64,000 nt of DNA from Campylobacterales bacterium (GCA_016937775.1 JAFGVX010000050.1:898-64897), one strand, 5' to 3'. Counted from the stretch's first letter, positions 7,463 through 50,094 are shown. Translations and numbers: made by a program. The notes: a model not told the origin generated them from the sequence alone.

Positions 7463-7537
7463 TGGAGCGGGCGAAGGGATTCGAACCCTCGACCCTAACC
7501 TTGGCAAGGTTATGCTCTACCCCTGAGCTACGCCCGC
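7463..7537 (-). tRNA. tRNA-Gly (anticodon GCC)
   Basis: The reverse complement folds as a cloverleaf: acceptor GCGGGCG/CGCCCGC, anticodon loop TTGCCAA, T-loop TTCGAAT, encoded CCA. Confidence 0.9.
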
Positions 7538-7680: not shown

Positions 7681-7766
7681 TGGTACCTCGGGTCGGACTC
7701 GAACCGACACGAGCAAAGCTCACCAGATTTTGAGTCTGGCGTGTCTACCGGTTTCACCACCGAGGC
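7681..7766 (-). tRNA. tRNA-Leu (anticodon CAA), long variable arm
   Basis: Reverse complement: acceptor GCCTCGG/CCGAGGT, anticodon stem CCAGA/TCTGG with loop CTCAAAA, variable arm of about 15 nt, T-arm GTCGG-TTCGAGT-CCGAC, encoded CCA. Confidence 0.9.
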
Positions 7767-10289: not shown

Positions 10290-12854
10290 ATGGCTTTAGT
10301 CGAAGATTATAAAAAACATACCGAACAAAGAGCGCAATTGGGTGTTCCGCCGTTACCGCTTAACGCATCTCAGACGGCTGAGCTTGTGGAACTATTAAAG
10401 CAAGAGAATATCGCTGAAGAAGATTATCTTTTGAGTCTTTTTGCAAATAGAGTGCCTGCGGGTGTGGATGATGCAGCATATGTAAAAGCCGCATTTTTAA
10501 ATGATATCGTTCAAGGTAAAACGAAGTGTAGTGCTATTACAAAATTAGATGCTGTAAAACTTTTGGGCAATATGCATGGCGGTTTCAATGTAACTCCGCT
10601 TGTGGAGGCGCTTAAGATTGATGCAGTTGCAAACGAGGCGGCTGAACAATTAAAAAATACACTTTTGGTATATAATTCATTTAACGATGTAAAAGCATTG
10701 ATGGATGCAGGAAATGCAAAAGCAAAAGAGGTTATTGAATCTTGGGCAAATGCTGAATGGTTTACAAATCGACCTGAACTTCCGCAAGAGATGACACTGA
10801 CAGTATATAAAATTCCGGGTGAAACAAATACGGATGATCTCTCCCCTGCGAGTGAGGCATTCACAAGAGCAGATATTCCATTGCACGCAAACTCTATGTT
10901 GGTTTCTAGAATGGAAAATCCATTGGAAACCATGGCATCATTGAAAGAAAAGGGCTACCCATTAGCGTATGTCGGTGATGTTGTAGGTACGGGAAGTTCA
11001 AGAAAATCGGGTATTAATTCCGTGCAATGGCATATGGGTGAAGATATTCCCGGTATTCCAAATAAAAGAACAGGTGGTGTTGTGATCGGCTCAATCATTG
11101 CTCCTATTTTCTTTAATACGGCAGAAGACTCAGGATGTTTACCGCTTGAAGCTAATGTTGATAATCTTGAAACAGGTGATGTCATTACTGTAAAACCTTA
11201 TGAAGGAGTTATTGAAAAAAATGCAGAAGTGGTATCAACATTTAAATTAAACCCAAATACAATCACAGATGAGATGCGAGCAGGAGGAAGGATTCCTCTT
11301 ATTATCGGAAAAGGATTGACAGCTAAAGCAAGAGAAGTTTTAGGTATGGATCCATCTGATATGTTCTTGACTCCCAATCAGCCTGAAGATGACGGATCGG
11401 GTTATACACTCGCGCAAAAAATGGTTGGTGAGGCATGTGGTGTGAAGGGGGTTAAACCGGGTGTTTACTGTGAGCCAATTGCAACAACTGTTGGAAGCCA
11501 AGATACAACGGGACCGATGACAAGAGATGAGATCAAAGAGCTTGCAGCCCTTTCGTTCGGTGCTGATTTTGTGCTTCAGTCATTTTGCCATACAGCAGCT
11601 TATCCAAAGCCTGCAGATATTGAACTACAACATACGCTTCCTGATTTTTGGACAAGCAGAAAAGGCTTTATATTAAGACCCGGTGATGGTGTAATTCACT
11701 CTTGGCTCAATAGAATGTGTCTGCCAGATACTGTAGGAACGGGCGGAGATAGCCATACGAGATTTCCTATAGGTATTTCTTTTCCTGCGGGAAGCGGACT
11801 TGTTGCTTTTGCCGCTGTTACGGGTATGATGCCACTTACTATGCCTGAGTCTGTATTGGTGAAATTTAAAGGAGAAATGCAGCCAGGTATTACGCTTAGA
11901 GACCTTGTTAATGCTATTCCGTATCAGGCTATCAAGGATGGTCTATTGACAGTTGAGAAAAAAGGTAAGAAAAATATTTTTGCGGGAAGAGTTTTAGAGA
12001 TTGAAGGACTCGAAGATCTTAAATGCGAGCAAGCGTTTGAACTTAGTGACGCTAGCGCAGAGAGAAGTGCAGCGGCTTGTACGGTAAAGTTAAACAAAGA
12101 GCCAATTATCGAATATCTCGAATCAAATATCGTTCTTATTGATGAGCTAATAGCTCAAGGGTATGAAGATAAGGCTACGCTTGCTAGAAGAAGAGATAAG
12201 ATGAAAGCTTGGCTTGCAAACCCTGAGTTGCTCGAAGCTGACGCTAATGCGCAGTATGCAGCAACTATCGAGATTGATTTAAATGAGATCAGAGAGCCGA
12301 TCTTGGCATGTCCTAATGATCCTGATGATGTGAAGACACTAAGTGAAATCCATGAAGCGGGACTCCAAACAAAAATCGATGAAGTATTTGTCGGTTCATG
12401 TATGACAAATATCGGACTCTTTAGAGCTTTAGGTGAGGTTTTGAGAGGTGAAGGTGCCGTTCCTACAAAATTGTGGGTTTGTCCTCCGACGAAAATGGAT
12501 GAAAAAACGCTTATTGAGGAAGGATATTATGCTGTGTTTGGAACAGCGGGGGCTAGAACAGAGATACCCGGATGCTCTTTATGTATGGGTAATCAGGCCT
12601 CGGTGGCACAAAATGCATATGTATTTAGTACATCTACGAGAAACTTTGACAATAGACTCGGAAAAGGCTCTCAGGTGTATCTCGGAAGTGCAGAGCTCGC
12701 AGCTGTGACAGCTCTTAAGGGTCGCATTCCGACAGCAGCAGAGTATATGGAGATAGTTCCAAATAAAATCAAGCCTGAGATGAGCGATAATGTTTATAGA
12801 TATTTAAATTTCAACAAAGTCTCAAAAGAGGCACTAGAGGCAATGGTGGGCTAA
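10290..12854 (+). CDS. acnB: Aconitate hydratase B (bifunctional aconitase 2 / 2-methylisocitrate dehydratase)
   Basis: 854 aa. AcnB-type N-terminal HEAT-like domain followed by the aconitase core with cluster cysteines. Confidence 0.9.
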
Positions 12855-34019: not shown

Positions 34020-34509
34020 TAAGCGTATCATTAATGCACTCTTGATAGTTGATATCGGTGTTGTGGTTTTTTGCTATCTTTTTGGCACGCGCACATGGCT
34101 TATAAATTCTCAGATAGGTTTTGTGAGTTCCCTCTTGGTTGTTTTGGCTTCCATGCATAGCTATAGCAAGATGGTACAGAGGCAAGTTGAAAATGCAAAA
34201 CCACTTGACAATGAAGATGATGTGCTAGAGAAAATTGAAGATCCACATGAGGTTTTCAGAGAAGATGCAGAGTCTCAAGAAGAGGATTCAAGGAAGGAGC
34301 CAAAAATCAGTGTGTTAGAATCATTGAAAAACTCAAGAGCTTCGATATCCTTTTATAGGATAGGTGCATATGGAGTATTTGCACTTGGTTTCTTGTATCT
34401 CTCAAGTAATAAAATTTTTCATATTTCAAGTTATTTTGTCGGTATATCTTTACCTATAGCTGTTATTGTTACTTTACTATTTTTGAAAGCAAAAAAAGGA
34501 GATGTATGA
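33997..34509 (+). CDS. Hypothetical membrane protein
   Basis: 170 aa. 2+2 TM helices with an acidic central loop. The start is ambiguous (MTMMTM) and overlaps the upstream poly-Asp codons. Confidence 0.45.
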   Translation: MTMMTMIDKRIINALLIVDIGVVVFCYLFGTRTWLINSQIGFVSSLLVVLASMHSYSKMVQRQVENAKPLDNEDDVLEKIEDPHEVFREDAESQEEDSRKEPKISVLESLKNSRASISFYRIGAYGVFALGFLYLSSNKIFHISSYFVGISLPIAVIVTLLFLKAKKGDV

Positions 34510-34529
34510 TATTGAGACAAATGCATTTT

Positions 34530-34599
34530 GGATTGCCACGACTTTTTCAAAGTCTCGCAATGACAGTCATTGGGATGGGCAAAGCGAAGAAGCAATCCA
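34530..34599. repeat. Family-B palindromic composite element (about 70 nt)
   Basis: ggattgccacgactttttcaaagtctcgcaatgac a gtcattgggatgggcaaagcgaagaagcaatcca. Ends ggattgc/gcaatcc are perfect inverted repeats. Confidence 0.8.
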
Positions 34600-35267
34600 T
34601 TTACCTTAAAAGTATATTTTTATTTTTTGCAATTTTTAGTTTTGGATATGCAAAAGATTTTGTAATCATCGATAAACCTATAGATTTTAGTCCAAATAGA
34701 ATATCTATGACAAAAGATTATATCAAGGTTCATTATGGTTTGGATGTTAAAGATATAACTATAAATCCAAAGATTATAGTGCTTCATTGGACGGCAGTTC
34801 CGACACTTGAGGGTTCATTTGATAGGTTGAGACCGGAACTTTTGCTTACCGATCGCAAAGATATAGCAGCTGCGGGGGCTGTGAATGTTTCATCTCATTT
34901 TTTAGTTGATAGAGACGGGACTATATATAGATTGATGCCCGAGAATTATATGGCAAGGCACACTATAGGGCTTAATTATTATGCGATAGGCATAGAAAAT
35001 GTCGGAGGCAAGGGTGATAAGAGTGAAGATTTGACCCAAGCTCAAGTAAAAGCAAATGCTTATTTAGTGAGATATCTGAAGACAAAGTATCCTGACATTG
35101 AGCTTTTGATGGGACATCATGAATATGCTAAAATGAAGAAAACAAAGTATTGGCTAGAGAAGGATGATAATTATTTTACGCAAAAAAATGATCCGGGCGA
35201 TATCTTTATGAATGCTGTTAGAAGCAAAGTTGTTGACATTGGGCTCAAAAATCCAAGCGAGTTTTAA
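34575..35267 (+). CDS. Secreted N-acetylmuramoyl-L-alanine amidase (Amidase_2/PGRP fold)
   Basis: IVLHWTAVPT...SSHFLVDRDGTIY...IGIENVG. I place the start at MGKAKK (34575), upstream of the signal peptide. The 23 codons from 34506 are encoded by the repeat element. Confidence 0.7.
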   Translation: MGKAKKQSIYLKSIFLFFAIFSFGYAKDFVIIDKPIDFSPNRISMTKDYIKVHYGLDVKDITINPKIIVLHWTAVPTLEGSFDRLRPELLLTDRKDIAAAGAVNVSSHFLVDRDGTIYRLMPENYMARHTIGLNYYAIGIENVGGKGDKSEDLTQAQVKANAYLVRYLKTKYPDIELLMGHHEYAKMKKTKYWLEKDDNYFTQKNDPGDIFMNAVRSKVVDIGLKNPSEF

Positions 35268-36763
35268 TGCAAAGCGGATTTGGTATAGTTGATTGGGGTG
35301 TTTTGATAGCCTATTTTTTGATTATTGCACTTAGTTCCTTCGTTTTTAGCCGTATCAAGATCGCAACTTCTAGAGACTATTTTGTCGCTTCTAATAGCGT
35401 GCCGATGTTTGCTGCAGCCATCTCTATACTTGCCACAACTCAATCGGCTGCCACATTTTTAGGTGGCCCTGAATACTCCTATCTTCATGATCTTACCTTT
35501 GTTGGCTTTTATGTTTCGGCATTTCTAGCTGTTATTTTTGTTGCTTGGGTGCTTATTCCAAGATTCTATGCACTCAAAGCAGTTACTGTTTATGAGCTTT
35601 TGGAAAATCGATATGGCGCGAGTGCTAAAAGAGCAGCAGGTGTGATGTTTTTGGTAGGTCGTCTCTTTGCTAGCGGTGCTAGACTCTACATCGGCGCACT
35701 TGCGATATCGATGATACTTTTTTTGGATATCGAGGCTTTCCATGTTGCTATATCGGTAGTAGTTTTGATGTTTGGTGCGCTTTTATATGTTTATTTCGGC
35801 GGTGTCAAATCGGTCATCTTCTCTGATATCATCCAAGCATTTACCTATATCGGGGCTGCGATTGCCGTGATATGGTATCTCTATATTTCGCTCGATAGTG
35901 ATATGTCAACGATAATAAACACTCTTTATACATCCGGTAAGTTGAAGCTCATAAGCTTTGAGGGTGATTTTAGTATTTGGGCGTTGCTGAGCGGATGGTT
36001 TTTGCTCAATGTTGCAGCGTATGGGCTTGATCAAGATATGACACAAAGAGCACTCTCGTGTAAAGATACAAAAAGTGCACAAAATTCGCTTCTCTTCTCC
36101 GTTTTGCTCACACTTCCTGTTGCATTTCTTTTTTTGATCATCGGACTGCTTTTATACCTCTTTTATGCAAAAGTAGGCATTGCTTCAAAAGAGTTTGACG
36201 GAGAGAGTGTGACGATATTTATGTACTATATCCTCCATGAGATGCCTGAAGGTTTGCGAGGGCTTGTGACTGTGGGCGCCATAGCCGCAGCACTCTCATC
36301 TTCTAACTCTGTGTTGGGTGCCATGGCTTCTGTGGCGATAGAAGACATCTATAAGCCTTGGAAGTTGGCACGAGGCAGTATCGGCGAAGCACACTTTGTA
36401 AGAGCAGGGAGGATGAGTGTTGTGGTATTTTCTATTTTGCTCTCACTTATGGCGATGCTGAGTTATTATTGGCAGCACCATAGTGGCACATCTCTGCTTA
36501 GTTTTGCTCTTGGCGTGATGGCATTTGCTTATGCGGGGCTCCTAGGAGTCTATGGTGCAGCGATCTTTACAACTAGAGGGAGTGCGAAAAGTGTATTATT
36601 TGCTCTTGGCATGGGGTTTTTGACAGTACTTCTTTTGCAGCCTTATATCTTTGGTGCTAATATAGGGTTTTCTTGGCAGATAGTTTTAGGAACCGCTGCT
36701 TCATTTGGAGTGATGATGCTGAGTAAAAATCGCAGAGACATACAAAAGGACATCTATGAGTGA
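35267..36763 (+). CDS. Sodium:solute symporter (SSS) family transporter
   Basis: 498 aa, about 13 TM helices, SSS-type N-terminal region. TAATG overlap with the amidase gene. Confidence 0.75.
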   Translation: MQSGFGIVDWGVLIAYFLIIALSSFVFSRIKIATSRDYFVASNSVPMFAAAISILATTQSAATFLGGPEYSYLHDLTFVGFYVSAFLAVIFVAWVLIPRFYALKAVTVYELLENRYGASAKRAAGVMFLVGRLFASGARLYIGALAISMILFLDIEAFHVAISVVVLMFGALLYVYFGGVKSVIFSDIIQAFTYIGAAIAVIWYLYISLDSDMSTIINTLYTSGKLKLISFEGDFSIWALLSGWFLLNVAAYGLDQDMTQRALSCKDTKSAQNSLLFSVLLTLPVAFLFLIIGLLLYLFYAKVGIASKEFDGESVTIFMYYILHEMPEGLRGLVTVGAIAAALSSSNSVLGAMASVAIEDIYKPWKLARGSIGEAHFVRAGRMSVVVFSILLSLMAMLSYYWQHHSGTSLLSFALGVMAFAYAGLLGVYGAAIFTTRGSAKSVLFALGMGFLTVLLLQPYIFGANIGFSWQIVLGTAASFGVMMLSKNRRDIQKDIYE

Positions 36764-37940
36764 ACTTTATATCGGTGTGATGAGCGGAACCTCTCTTGAT
36801 GGCATCGATGTTGCCCTTTGTGAGATAGACGCCCATAGCTGTAAACTTGTAGCATCACAGAGCTCTCCACTCCCACCCAAGCTTAAAGCCATGATACTCC
36901 ACGCTATAAACTCCAAGATAACCCTAGAGGAGTTCACAAAGCTTGATCATCTTTTGGGTCTTGCGTTTGCTAAGAGTATTGATGCTCTCCTAAAGAGCAC
37001 AAGTTATGAAAAAGGTGATATCAAAGCCATAGGTTTACACGGACAGACTCTTTGGCATACTCCAAAAAGTGCCACTCCAAGTTCGCTGCAACTAGGAGAT
37101 GCCAATGTGGTTGCTGTGCAGAGCAAGATAGATGTCGTGAGTGATTTTAGGCGTAAAGATGTAGCACTTGGAGGTGAGGGCGCCCCCCTTGCTCCTGCGT
37201 TTCATGCGTTTTTATTTCAAGACATCATCGATGAGACTGCTGTAGTCAATATCGGCGGTATGTCTAATATCACTGTCAAGGATAACAGTAAACTCATAGG
37301 TTATGATGTAGGGTGTGGCAATGTACTTCTTGATATGTGGATAGGTATACAGCAAGATAAAAGCTATGATGAGAGCGGAGCGTGGGCAAAGAGCGGCAAG
37401 ATGATTCAATCTCTTTTGGATACCATGCTTAGCGATGTCTATTTTGCAAAAAGCTATCCAAAGAGTACGGGCAGGGAGTATTTCAATCAAGAGTGGCTTG
37501 AAGATAAATTATTCTGTCATTCTGAACTCGTTTTGGAATCAAAAAATAGGGAGATCCTGAAACGAGTTCAGGATGACAACAGAGAATCAAAAAAAGAGGA
37601 GATCCTGAAGCGAGTTCAGGATGACAAGCGGTTGCAAGCAGATATCCAAAGAACACTGTTAGAGCTCACAGCATTAAGCATTGCCAAAGAGGTCAAGAGG
37701 TTTGATAAAAAGAGAGTTATGCTTTGTGGGGGTGGGGCTAAAAATAGCTTTTTAGTAGAACGCCTAAGAGTAAACCTCCCTCAAGTAAAAGTGGAAATTG
37801 CCCAAAATAGTGATATATTAGAAGCGATGGCATTTGCTTGGTTAGCTTCTATGCGTGTGTATGGTAAAAGTGTAGAGTTAAGCAGTGTAACAGGCGCAAA
37901 AAAAGATGCCATACTTGGAGCGATTTATGCAGGAGATTAA
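36756..37940 (+). CDS. anmK: Anhydro-N-acetylmuramic acid kinase, carrying an in-frame repeat insertion
   Basis: 394 aa. GVMSGTSLDGIDV, DFRRKDVALGGEGAPL, KSTGREYFN and SVTGA motifs. 8-nt overlap with the transporter gene. Confidence 0.85.
   Translation: MSELYIGVMSGTSLDGIDVALCEIDAHSCKLVASQSSPLPPKLKAMILHAINSKITLEEFTKLDHLLGLAFAKSIDALLKSTSYEKGDIKAIGLHGQTLWHTPKSATPSSLQLGDANVVAVQSKIDVVSDFRRKDVALGGEGAPLAPAFHAFLFQDIIDETAVVNIGGMSNITVKDNSKLIGYDVGCGNVLLDMWIGIQQDKSYDESGAWAKSGKMIQSLLDTMLSDVYFAKSYPKSTGREYFNQEWLEDKLFCHSELVLESKNREILKRVQDDNRESKKEEILKRVQDDKRLQADIQRTLLELTALSIAKEVKRFDKKRVMLCGGGAKNSFLVERLRVNLPQVKVEIAQNSDILEAMAFAWLASMRVYGKSVELSSVTGAKKDAILGAIYAGD
37516..37627. repeat. Three family-A hairpin modules (one forward, two reverse) inside the anmK reading frame
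   Basis: gtcattctgaactcgttttggaatc (37516-37540), gatcctgaaacgagttcaggatgac (37553-37577), gatcctgaagcgagttcaggatgac (37601-37625). Confidence 0.85.
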
Positions 37941-38865: not shown

Positions 38866-38866
38866 T

Positions 38867-38928
38867 GTCATTATGAGGTTTTGTTGGAATCTAAAAATGA
38901 AGAGATCCTGAAACGAGTTCAGGATGAC
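38867..38928. repeat. Family-A inverted doublet (REPIN-like), 62 nt
   Basis: gtcattatgaggttttgttggaatc + 12 nt + gatcctgaaacgagttcaggatgac. About 85 percent identical to 37516-37577. Confidence 0.8.
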
Positions 38929-38953
38929 GATAAATTTTAAAATGGAAAAAAAT

Positions 38954-39008
38954 GTCATTCTGAATTTATTTGTCCTCAGGCTTCGCCCTGCGAGATTTCA
39001 TCAGAATC
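38954..39008. repeat. Family-A module interrupted by a 30-nt GC-rich insert
   Basis: gtcattctgaatttattt[gtcctcaggcttcgccctgcgagatttcat]cagaatc. Confidence 0.65.
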
Positions 39009-39029
39009 TAAAACGATAGAGGGAAAAAT

Positions 39030-48128: not shown

Positions 48129-48193
48129 GTCATGCTGAACTTGTTTCAGCATCTCTTCTTATATTTTAGACCCTGAAACAAGTTCAGGGTGAC
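48129..48193. repeat. Family-A inverted doublet (REPIN-like), 65 nt
   Basis: gtcatgctgaacttgtttcagcatc + 15 nt + gaccctgaaacaagttcagggtgac. Confidence 0.85.
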
Positions 48194-48201
48194 GGTGTGT
48201 T

Positions 48202-48234
48202 GTCATTGCGAGAAGCTTTAGCTTCGTGGCAATC
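48202..48234. repeat. Family-B module, reverse orientation
   Basis: gtcattgcgagaagctttagcttcgtggcaatc. Its reverse complement is 33/33 identical to 31524-31556. Confidence 0.9.
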
Positions 48235-48257
48235 TATATTCTATAAAGTAAACAAAT

Positions 48258-48413
48258 CCGCTCATGGTGAGCTTGTCGAACCATTATCTTGCTCTTGTTC
48301 CCATGCTTTGCGTGGGAATACATACTCCCAATATTTTATATGTGTTTCCACGAAAATCGTAGGAACGAGGGAATGTTTTTCTTTTTCTTCTTTCCACTTT
48401 TTAGAAAAGTGGA
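48258..48413. repeat. String of further short hairpin modules
   Basis: ccgctcatggtgagcttgtcgaaccat, ttcccatgctttgcgtgggaa, ttccacgaaaatcgtaggaa, tccactttttagaaaagtgga. Confidence 0.55.
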
Positions 48414-50035: not shown

Positions 50036-50094
50036 GTCACCCTGAATTTATTTCAGGGTCTAGTTTGTAGATTCTGAAACAAGTTCAGAATGAC
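50036..50094. repeat. Family-A inverted doublet (REPIN-like), 59 nt
   Basis: gtcaccctgaatttatttcagggtc + 9 nt + gattctgaaacaagttcagaatgac. Confidence 0.85.

Follow-up and report, generated by a model that had tools for sequence, protein, structure and literature searches.

The window analysed here is a stretch of 64,000 nucleotides (nt) from a Campylobacterales bacterium (GCA_016937775.1, JAFGVX010000050.1:898-64897), whose lineage is of the Sulfurovaceae type, a deep-sea type of Campylobacterota. It contains an operon for peptidoglycan recycling in which Pfam recognises an Amidase_2 protein, a sodium:solute symporter (SSF), the anhydro-N-acetylmuramic acid kinase AnmK, an APH-type kinase resembling AmgK and a nucleotidyltransferase resembling MurU. 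Start and stop codons of neighbouring genes in the operon overlap; anmK (36756..37940, plus strand) overlaps at its start with the SSF transporter gene upstream and at its end with amgK. The subject of this study is a segment inside anmK in which the reading frame passes through three copies of a hairpin repeat of the CGTC/TGTC-tagged repetitive palindromic (REP) class.

The anmK open reading frame (ORF) is intact and encodes 394 residues. Residues 4-392 of the protein match the Pfam AnmK family (PF03702) over profile positions 2-366 of 367 (E 6.8e-121), and the match to the crystal structure 3cqy in the PDB has an E value of 1.6e-81. An AlphaFold2 (AF2) model was calculated from 120 homologues with a mean predicted local distance difference test score (pLDDT) of 90.5. 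Foldseek comparisons of this model gave template modelling (TM) scores of 0.91-0.93, normalised to the target, for 3cqy, 3qbx and 3qbw, and the best structural matches are AnmK. The residues invariant in the AnmK family are kept, and an identical protein carries the AnmK annotation in a Campylobacterales metagenome-assembled genome (MAG). These comparisons identify the product as a full-length AnmK of the ASKHA fold, with predicted activities in phosphorylation and in cleavage of the 1,6-anhydro bond.

Repeat modules inside the anmK coding sequence

One forward and two reverse 25-nt hairpins are read through in frame at 37515-37626, as a first-pass annotation of this DNA had claimed, and the translation quoted there matches the computed one exactly. 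Module 1 (37515..37540, forward) is composed of a TGTC tag (37515-18), the arms ATTCTGAA and TTTGGAAT, a CTCGT loop and a tail C. Four of its 25 positions deviate from the canonical module and two stem positions pair as G.U only; its peptide is CHSELVLES. An A-rich spacer of 12 nt (37541..37552, peptide KNRE) separates module 1 from module 2 (37553..37578, reverse), which has the perfect stem ATCCTGAA/TTCAGGAT, the loop ACGAG and the tag GACA, equivalent to TGTC, and is translated as EILKRVQDD. Immediately downstream, 37579..37626 is a tandem duplicate of 37531-37578, 48 nt or 16 codons long and translated as NRESKKEEILKRVQDD. The duplicate includes module 3 (37601..37626, reverse), with a perfect 8-bp stem, the loop GCGAG and the tag GACA. 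Of the three phases in which the doublet formed by modules 1 and 2 can be read, a single one is free of stops, and it is the phase in use.

HMMER alignments of the window AnmK with 3cqy (Shewanella) and 3qbw (Pseudomonas aeruginosa) break at query residues 258/294, with the structure chains continuous across the break (263/265 and 255/258, respectively). About 35 residues are therefore without a counterpart in the solved structures, in agreement with the shorter spacing that the first-pass annotation had given for other AnmKs. Together with relatives that carry zero, two or three modules and with the dispersed occurrence of the repeat family, the missing segment in the solved structures upholds the earlier view that this is captured repeat DNA and not an ancestral part of the protein. 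Judged from sequence, the intragenic segment is inserted repeat DNA whose three modules are predicted to be translated as ~35 extra residues. The 48-nt tandem duplication, the identity of the modules as CGTC-tagged REPs and the role of the loop as a recurrent insertion site had been missed.

No target-site duplication was found at the borders of 37515-37626 or at those of the related intergenic copy at 38866-38928. The insert-less allele of the relatives L001 and L132 does not present a simple unoccupied site, since its loop (EHFIDNKKYQAQ) has a sequence other than that of the flanks in insert-bearing alleles and deviates from them by 3 nt; the borders of the insertion are therefore not exactly definable. 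A search of a collection of 5.8 billion proteins with the 42-residue insert peptide as the query yielded only 20 candidates and one hypothetical protein of 70 residues, and was thus uninformative on other proteins decorated with the module.

Alleles in close relatives and recurrent insertion in one loop

Comparisons of anmK genes with 86-93% nucleotide identity showed three module states. No module is present in L001 or in L132, the latter an insert-less allele from another metagenome; two modules are present in L003 and L133, and three in the window and L004. Among the corresponding proteins, P0002 (87% identity, 394 residues) has the same three modules, P0003-P0005 (84% identity, 378 residues) are exactly 16 residues shorter, and P0006 (359 residues) has no module, with an identity of 76% over the full length and 84% over the aligned columns. 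The 16 codons of the 48-nt duplicate are precisely those missing in P0003-P0005 and L003. The two 48-nt units within one genome are identical at 39 of 48 positions; between the window and L004, orthologous units agree at 43-44 of 48, the unit at 37579..37626 at 44. Thus, the duplication predates the split between the window and L004. The insert has a dS of ~0.3-0.4, of the same order as the 0.46-0.48 in the rest of the gene, indicating that the insert is old rather than recent.

In a neighbour-joining (NJ) tree calculated with the loop masked, P0006 is nested among the insert-bearing sequences, and the two- and three-module alleles are interleaved. This topology implies loss of the insert and repeated gain or loss of the 48-nt unit, with recombination as an alternative explanation of the NJ tree. 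Outside the loop, dN/dS is 0.11-0.18 (dS 0.18-0.48), whether or not the compared pair carries the insert; the insert itself has a ratio of 0.32-0.69, on small counts. The low ratios indicate that the gene is functional and under purifying selection, and that the insert is less constrained.

The loop itself varies widely. In 117 orthologues, mostly of Sulfurovaceae and 53-60% identical, the segment from W to D(I/V)Q is 13 residues long in 43 sequences, 16 in 26 and 19 in 17, and the other 31 have 15, 18 or 26-56 residues. The range of 13 to 56 residues bears out the earlier proposal that the insertion point is a variable loop, and the orthologues contain no conserved segment of equal length unrelated to the repeats. 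An alignment of 120 orthologues showed insertions of at least six residues in this loop and at no other internal position. The loop is occupied by at least five types of hairpin repeat: three stem types of the CGTC module, dimers with a GTAG tag and one additional family of hairpins.

The individual loops differ in composition. One forward and three reverse modules with the CTGAA stem of the window copies are found in L125. In the loop of L126, a CGTC module of the CCGGA stem type is combined with a CTGAA module and a partial duplicate of 18 nt. L128 has three modules, each of a different stem type, one of them an extra module 5' of a doublet; comparison of L128 with L126 showed that the extra module accreted beside an existing doublet. 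L127 carries a GTAG-tagged REP dimer (GTAGGGGCGAAC...), L131 and L134 carry a long hairpin of the fifth family (LRQAQG...ELVEVVE), and L129, which belongs to the 16-residue class, carries a relic half-module (CAAGTTAAGGATGA). The 19-residue class (RRGSSVCS...) was considered as a further repeat-derived form; its resemblance to GTAG REPs at the DNA level is weak, and it was left uncounted. In L126 the AmgK homologue (11127-12167) has an in-frame REP doublet as well (HSEFISESKSKDEILKQVQDDE), past residue 5, and its last 10 residues come from another module. The L126 locus, 21 kb long, contains six perfect tagged hairpins, of which five are within anmK or amgK.

Anatomy, spread and relatives of the repeat family

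Each module consists of an unpaired (C/T)GTC tag, an 8-bp stem (ATYCTGAA/TTCAGRAT), a 5-nt loop (CTCGT or CTTGT) and a short tail. Two variable stem positions co-vary across the copies (TC/GA, TT/AA, CC/GG and TG/CA), indicating that the hairpin and not the sequence is conserved. The window contains seven perfect copies, and two variants start with AC instead of AT. Allowing up to three mismatches, the 25-mer has six matches in the window, compared with 0.00 expected from 100 shuffles. TGTC tags are located at 37515, 37578, 37626, 48128 and 50095, and CGTC tags at 38929, 48194 and 50035. A C follows the stem in most of the window copies (ATC followed by TC or AA, GTC followed by TA), and no CCA consensus is visible in the tail. 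Inverted pairs with outward tags and spacers of 10-16 nt are found at 37515-37578, 38866-38928, 48129-48193 and 50036-50094, each of which folds as a single long hairpin; the 64 kb contain in total four such doublets and one interrupted module.

A degenerate 25-mer, scanned against one genome per species, located the module in at least 120 stretches from many phyla, compared with ~0.14 expected by chance. The hosts among the matches listed include Sphingomonadales, Bacteroidota, Patescibacteria, Treponema, Gastranaerophilales and Sulfurovaceae, besides others. In 130 copies from other genomes among these matches, the tag is completed by G in 69 and by A in 50, and many of the listed copies are paired with an inverted module whose stem type is related. 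That a non-coding hairpin is conserved in sequence across phyla suggests horizontal spread or recognition by a conserved protein. The letter-for-letter module GATCCTGAAACAAGTTCAGGATGAC has 51 copies among the matches listed (L005-L124), in genomes of very different G+C content.

The intergenic copy nearest to anmK is a doublet at 38866..38928, composed of a decayed forward module and a perfect reverse module with a CGTC tag. It is 84% identical to 37515-37577 over 63 nt, close to the ~85% over 62 nt reported earlier. A second intergenic module of the CTGAA type (GTCATTCTGAATTTATTT...ATTTCATCAGAATC) lies at 38953..39013 and is interrupted by the 23-nt GC-rich sequence GTCCTCAGGCTTCGCCCTGCGAG. 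This arrangement has the appearance of a small element nested within the loop of another, and it folds no better than shuffled sequences (z -0.6). The two copies make up almost all of the 164-nt spacer between the amgK stop (38863-65) and the murU start (39030), the first module starting 1 nt past the stop. The same genes overlap by ATGA in L001 and L004, so that insertion of the REPs uncoupled them in the window; the junction in L003 holds a different set of REPs.

The two remaining doublets are also intergenic. That at 48129..48193 has the stem variants ATGCTGAA and ACCCTGAA and the tags TGTC and CGTC (minimum free energy (MFE) -33, z -7.6), and that at 50036..50094 has the stem variants ACCCTGAA and ATTCTGAA and the tags CGTC and TGTC (MFE -28.1, z -5.9). 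The region between them consists of ordinary genes. The intergenic region 48129-48330 is a mosaic of at least three hairpin-repeat families, similar to the bacterial interspersed mosaic elements (BIMEs) of enterobacteria: the CTGAA doublet, a TGTC-tagged hairpin (GTCATTGCGAG...GGCAATC, 48201-48234) and TTCCCATGCTTTGCGTGGGAA. No Y1/HUH transposase was found in a Pfam scan of 20 small ORFs within the 64-kb window.

REP-like modules also occur at the first gene of the operon list. The Amidase_2 ORF has 253 residues in the window and 223 in L001, and its first ~30 codons in the window (34506-34600) cross REP-like modules (..CTCGCAATGACA GTCATTGGGATGGGCAAAGCGAAGAAGCAATCC). Translation probably begins further downstream, at the ATG at 34575, and this start would itself fall within a module. 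Between the symporter gene and anmK, some relatives carry a small ParE-like toxin/antitoxin pair (L003, 2506-3008; L004, 2506-2733; L125, 8469-10008), accompanied in L125 by an Mrr-type restriction enzyme. The toxin gene overlaps the anmK start in L003 and L125, and the pair is missing from the window and L001. An Rfam scan of the window returned two tRNAs only and no RNA family at the repeats; the tRNA genes, on the minus strand at 7466-7537 and 7684-7766, are ordinary-looking.

Comparison with known systems places the modules close to the CGTC REPs (Di Nocera, De Gregorio & Rocco 2013, BMC Genomics 14:522, PMC3733652). These have a CGTC tag, often TGTC and in a variant CCTC, an 8-9-bp stem starting with AT, a 4-5-nt loop and a 3-nt tail with the consensus CCA, and they mostly form inverted dimers with spacers of 20-100 bp or shorter (PMC3733652). 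They are not associated with any transposase gene, and Sulfurovum sp. NBC37-1 has them together with GTAG REPs (PMC3733652). Intragenic dimers encode 20-30 residues and clusters 43-82, with peptides such as RHPGLDPGS, MGSCLRRSD and VIPAKAGI (PMC3733652); the peptides RHSGLDPES and VDSCLRRND in other AnmK loops resemble the first two. The window modules share the tag, the stem, the loop, the inverted dimers and the translated intragenic copies with the CGTC REPs, whereas the CCA tail consensus is not evident in the window. By these sequence features, the tail consensus aside, the modules are assigned to the CGTC/TGTC-tagged REP superfamily. The CTGAA-stem module and an AnmK host are absent from the text of PMC3733652 and from the accessible part of its supplementary tables, in which intragenic cases from Sulfurovum and the QVQDD peptide are missing as well, and that paper does not describe one orthologous loop repeatedly filled by several REP types, including GTAG-tagged ones.

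The insertion behaviour also resembles that of the Rickettsia palindromic elements (RPEs; Ogata et al. 2000/2002, as summarised in PMC10969869 and PMC3733652), whose palindromic repeats interrupt housekeeping genes in frame and are translated; because they lie at the protein surface, they are judged not to disturb the fold. The two groups are linked in the literature, as RPE-4 and RPE-6 of R. conorii correspond to CGTC-4 and CGTC-1 (PMC3733652). The likeness of the AnmK insert to RPEs lies in its in-frame behaviour; classical RPE-1 is ~150 bp long, and the AnmK host is a free-living lineage of Campylobacterota.

The REPINs of Pseudomonas reportedly consist of two inverted GTAG REPs with a short spacer that form one long hairpin and replicate as a unit, as described by Bertels and Rainey in 2011. 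The window doublets likewise are inverted pairs that fold as one long hairpin. However, REPINs are essentially extragenic, and membership in the GTAG system of REPINs and REP-associated tyrosine transposases (RAYTs) was rejected, as the modules carry CGTC/TGTC tags and the window shows no RAYT. The BIMEs of E. coli are mosaic clusters of REP variants that lie inside operons, between genes, and act on mRNA stability. The clusters at 38866-39013 and 48129-48330 are similarly mosaic, whereas the anmK modules are translated. An interpretation as a miniature inverted-repeat transposable element was rejected as well: the inverted modules could pass as terminal inverted repeats, but there is no flanking direct duplication and no known parent insertion sequence.

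In-frame intragenic REPs and RPEs are already established (PMC3733652, PMC10969869, PMC5896051). New are AnmK as a host, a translated CTGAA-stem module in Campylobacterota and the repeated colonisation of one loop by REP families of both tag classes.

Consequences for the enzyme and its mRNA, and competing explanations

In the AF2 model of the window AnmK, the insert is accommodated by a helix at residues 245-263 and an additional one at 276-289, which runs into the long helix preceding the GGGAxN strand; the low-confidence loop between the two, 264-275, has a block pLDDT of 55-69. The model of the insert-less P0006 has a helix at 245-251, a loop and a helix at 259-280, and its other secondary structure is identical. 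Modelling therefore places the insert as a charged, mostly helical excursion that prolongs the two helices beside the loop and leaves the predicted kinase fold intact.

The sense RNA of 37505-37640 has an MFE of -46.2 kcal/mol (z -5.8). Modules 1 and 2 are predicted to form a ~22-bp stem and module 3 a separate hairpin, and the orthologous inserts fold comparably (z -2.6 to -9.0). A strong mRNA hairpin follows from the palindromic sequence, and folding alone is therefore no evidence for function. Comparison of the forward arms of the window and L004 with the intact arm of L003, taken as the ancestral state, showed C>T on the coding strand in seven of seven events, a small sample. Derived changes over the whole gene are strand-symmetric (C>T 34, G>A 31, T>C 28 and A>G 27, of 162). 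In the forward arm, C>T changes are also found at cytosines of the loop, the tag and the tail (window 37515-37540; L004 3760-3785). Thus, strand-specific deamination explains the pattern at least as well as selection for RNA structure.

The most probable reading, which we hold with good confidence, is that selfish or neutral REP DNA was fixed in a phase and length that preserve AnmK, in a loop tolerant of extension, and was then remodelled by slippage, deletion and accretion of REPs. A dimer of CGTC/TGTC-tagged REPs, two inverted 25-nt modules with a 12-nt spacer, would have been fixed in frame in an ancestor of the Sulfurovaceae lineage and later enlarged by the 48-nt tandem duplication that gave the third module. 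Selection would have retained the in-frame versions because one phase is free of stops and only lengths divisible by three keep the enzyme. The insert would have no function of its own, the enzyme tolerating the selfish or neutral DNA. Of the two possibilities raised by the first-pass annotation, tolerance by the enzyme or a regulatory role of the hairpins, tolerance is favoured by the purifying selection on the gene, the weaker constraint on the insert and the unchanged fold model outside it. The loop would keep changing through slippage in copy number, loss, and accretion or exchange of neighbouring REP modules, presumably because other REPs preferentially target, or recombine with, a REP already in place.

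Retention of the intragenic hairpins for a role in the mRNA, as a processing site for RNase III or RNase E, a barrier to 3'-exonucleases or a ribosome pause, is the main alternative, though an unlikely one. Within the coupled amidase-transporter-anmK-amgK-murU operon, the hairpins would determine how much upstream product is made relative to downstream product, with the peptide arising as a by-product. REPs inside operons are established stabilisers of upstream mRNA in E. coli (malE-malF), and REPs gather at further junctions of the operon studied here. The predicted fold is strong in the window, and all orthologous inserts have comparable structures. The stem changes of the forward arm keep G.U pairs although several of them alter residues (H>Y, S>F and L>F). 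However, every REP doublet folds in this way, so the structure is uninformative on function, and the C>T changes at the loop, tag and tail point to mutation bias and not to selection for pairing. Moreover, very close relatives with an otherwise identical operon (L001 and L132) have the insert-less allele, the number of modules varies between two, three and four, and in other lineages the site is filled by repeat families unrelated to this one. This variability also argues against co-option of the REP peptide as a protein module, such as a charged helical arm modulating the gating loop, dimerisation or partner binding, since insert-less alleles and unrelated inserts coexist. The reverse-module peptide EILK(R/Q)VQDDK is well conserved across orthologues that are only 55-60% identical overall, and the predicted structure of the insert is helical, runs on from the flanking helices and is one helix away from the gate-loop equivalent. 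Yet conservation of EILKxVQDD is expected from the repeat, which has one open frame and is conserved as DNA across phyla, whereas the forward-module peptide varies freely (HSELVLES, YFEFVLEF and HSGLDPES). With dN/dS in the insert two to four times that in the rest of the gene and low pLDDT at its tip, co-option appears very improbable. Least credible is an artefact or a dead gene, that is, mis-assembly of repeats in a MAG or a pseudogene open by chance. The window does come from a MAG, and short tandem repeats are prone to assembly errors, but the three-module arrangement is also present in the independent assembly L004 (a 634-kb contig), in which each unit has diverged orthologously, and two-module alleles are present in four further assemblies. 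Mis-assembly and pseudogene were rejected on this assembly and unit divergence, together with the full-length Pfam match of the open frame and its low dN/dS outside the loop.

Several points weigh against selfish or neutral DNA as the full explanation. The P. aeruginosa loop L229-241 gates the entry of 1,6-anhydro-N-acetylmuramic acid (PMC10570956). The insert begins ~10 residues past the equivalent segment, and from this aligned position it may affect catalysis. The doublet has been retained over a dS of ~0.3-0.5 with a long hairpin in the sense RNA of every orthologue examined, and the C>T changes in the stem of the forward arm preserve G.U pairing in that RNA; persistence, hairpin and pairing together could reflect a constraint at the RNA level. 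Recurrence at one loop could likewise result from selection alone, if the loop is the sole permissive site, and not from targeting. The scanned window ORFs provide no transposase to account for the arrival of the element, and the neutrality of the insert is something we infer rather than demonstrate. There is an outside chance that one of two stronger statements holds: either the AnmK loop and the anmK-amgK-murU operon are a targeted landing pad for CGTC and GTAG REPs, through insertion, replacement or conversion, or the sense hairpin is selected as an RNA element with a passenger peptide. If so, the locus would be a natural, phylogenetically replicated system in which to catch the mechanism of CGTC REP mobilisation, or the first translated REP with an RNA function.

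The fixation of tolerated REP DNA in AnmK does not overturn current understanding. It shows CGTC-type REPs, whose mobility is unexplained, as dynamic within essential-pathway genes of free-living Campylobacterota, beyond Rickettsia and the alphaproteobacteria, and it provides, at one and the same orthologous protein loop, a clean allelic series of zero, two, three and four modules as well as several repeat families. For annotation, odd charged peptides in conserved proteins (EILKQVQDDK, HSGLDPES and GEPVCSP) are explained by REPs, and length variants of AnmK and AmgK in these genomes should be regarded as repeat-derived. For protein evolution, the AnmK loop is a further case of loop lengthening by translated selfish DNA.

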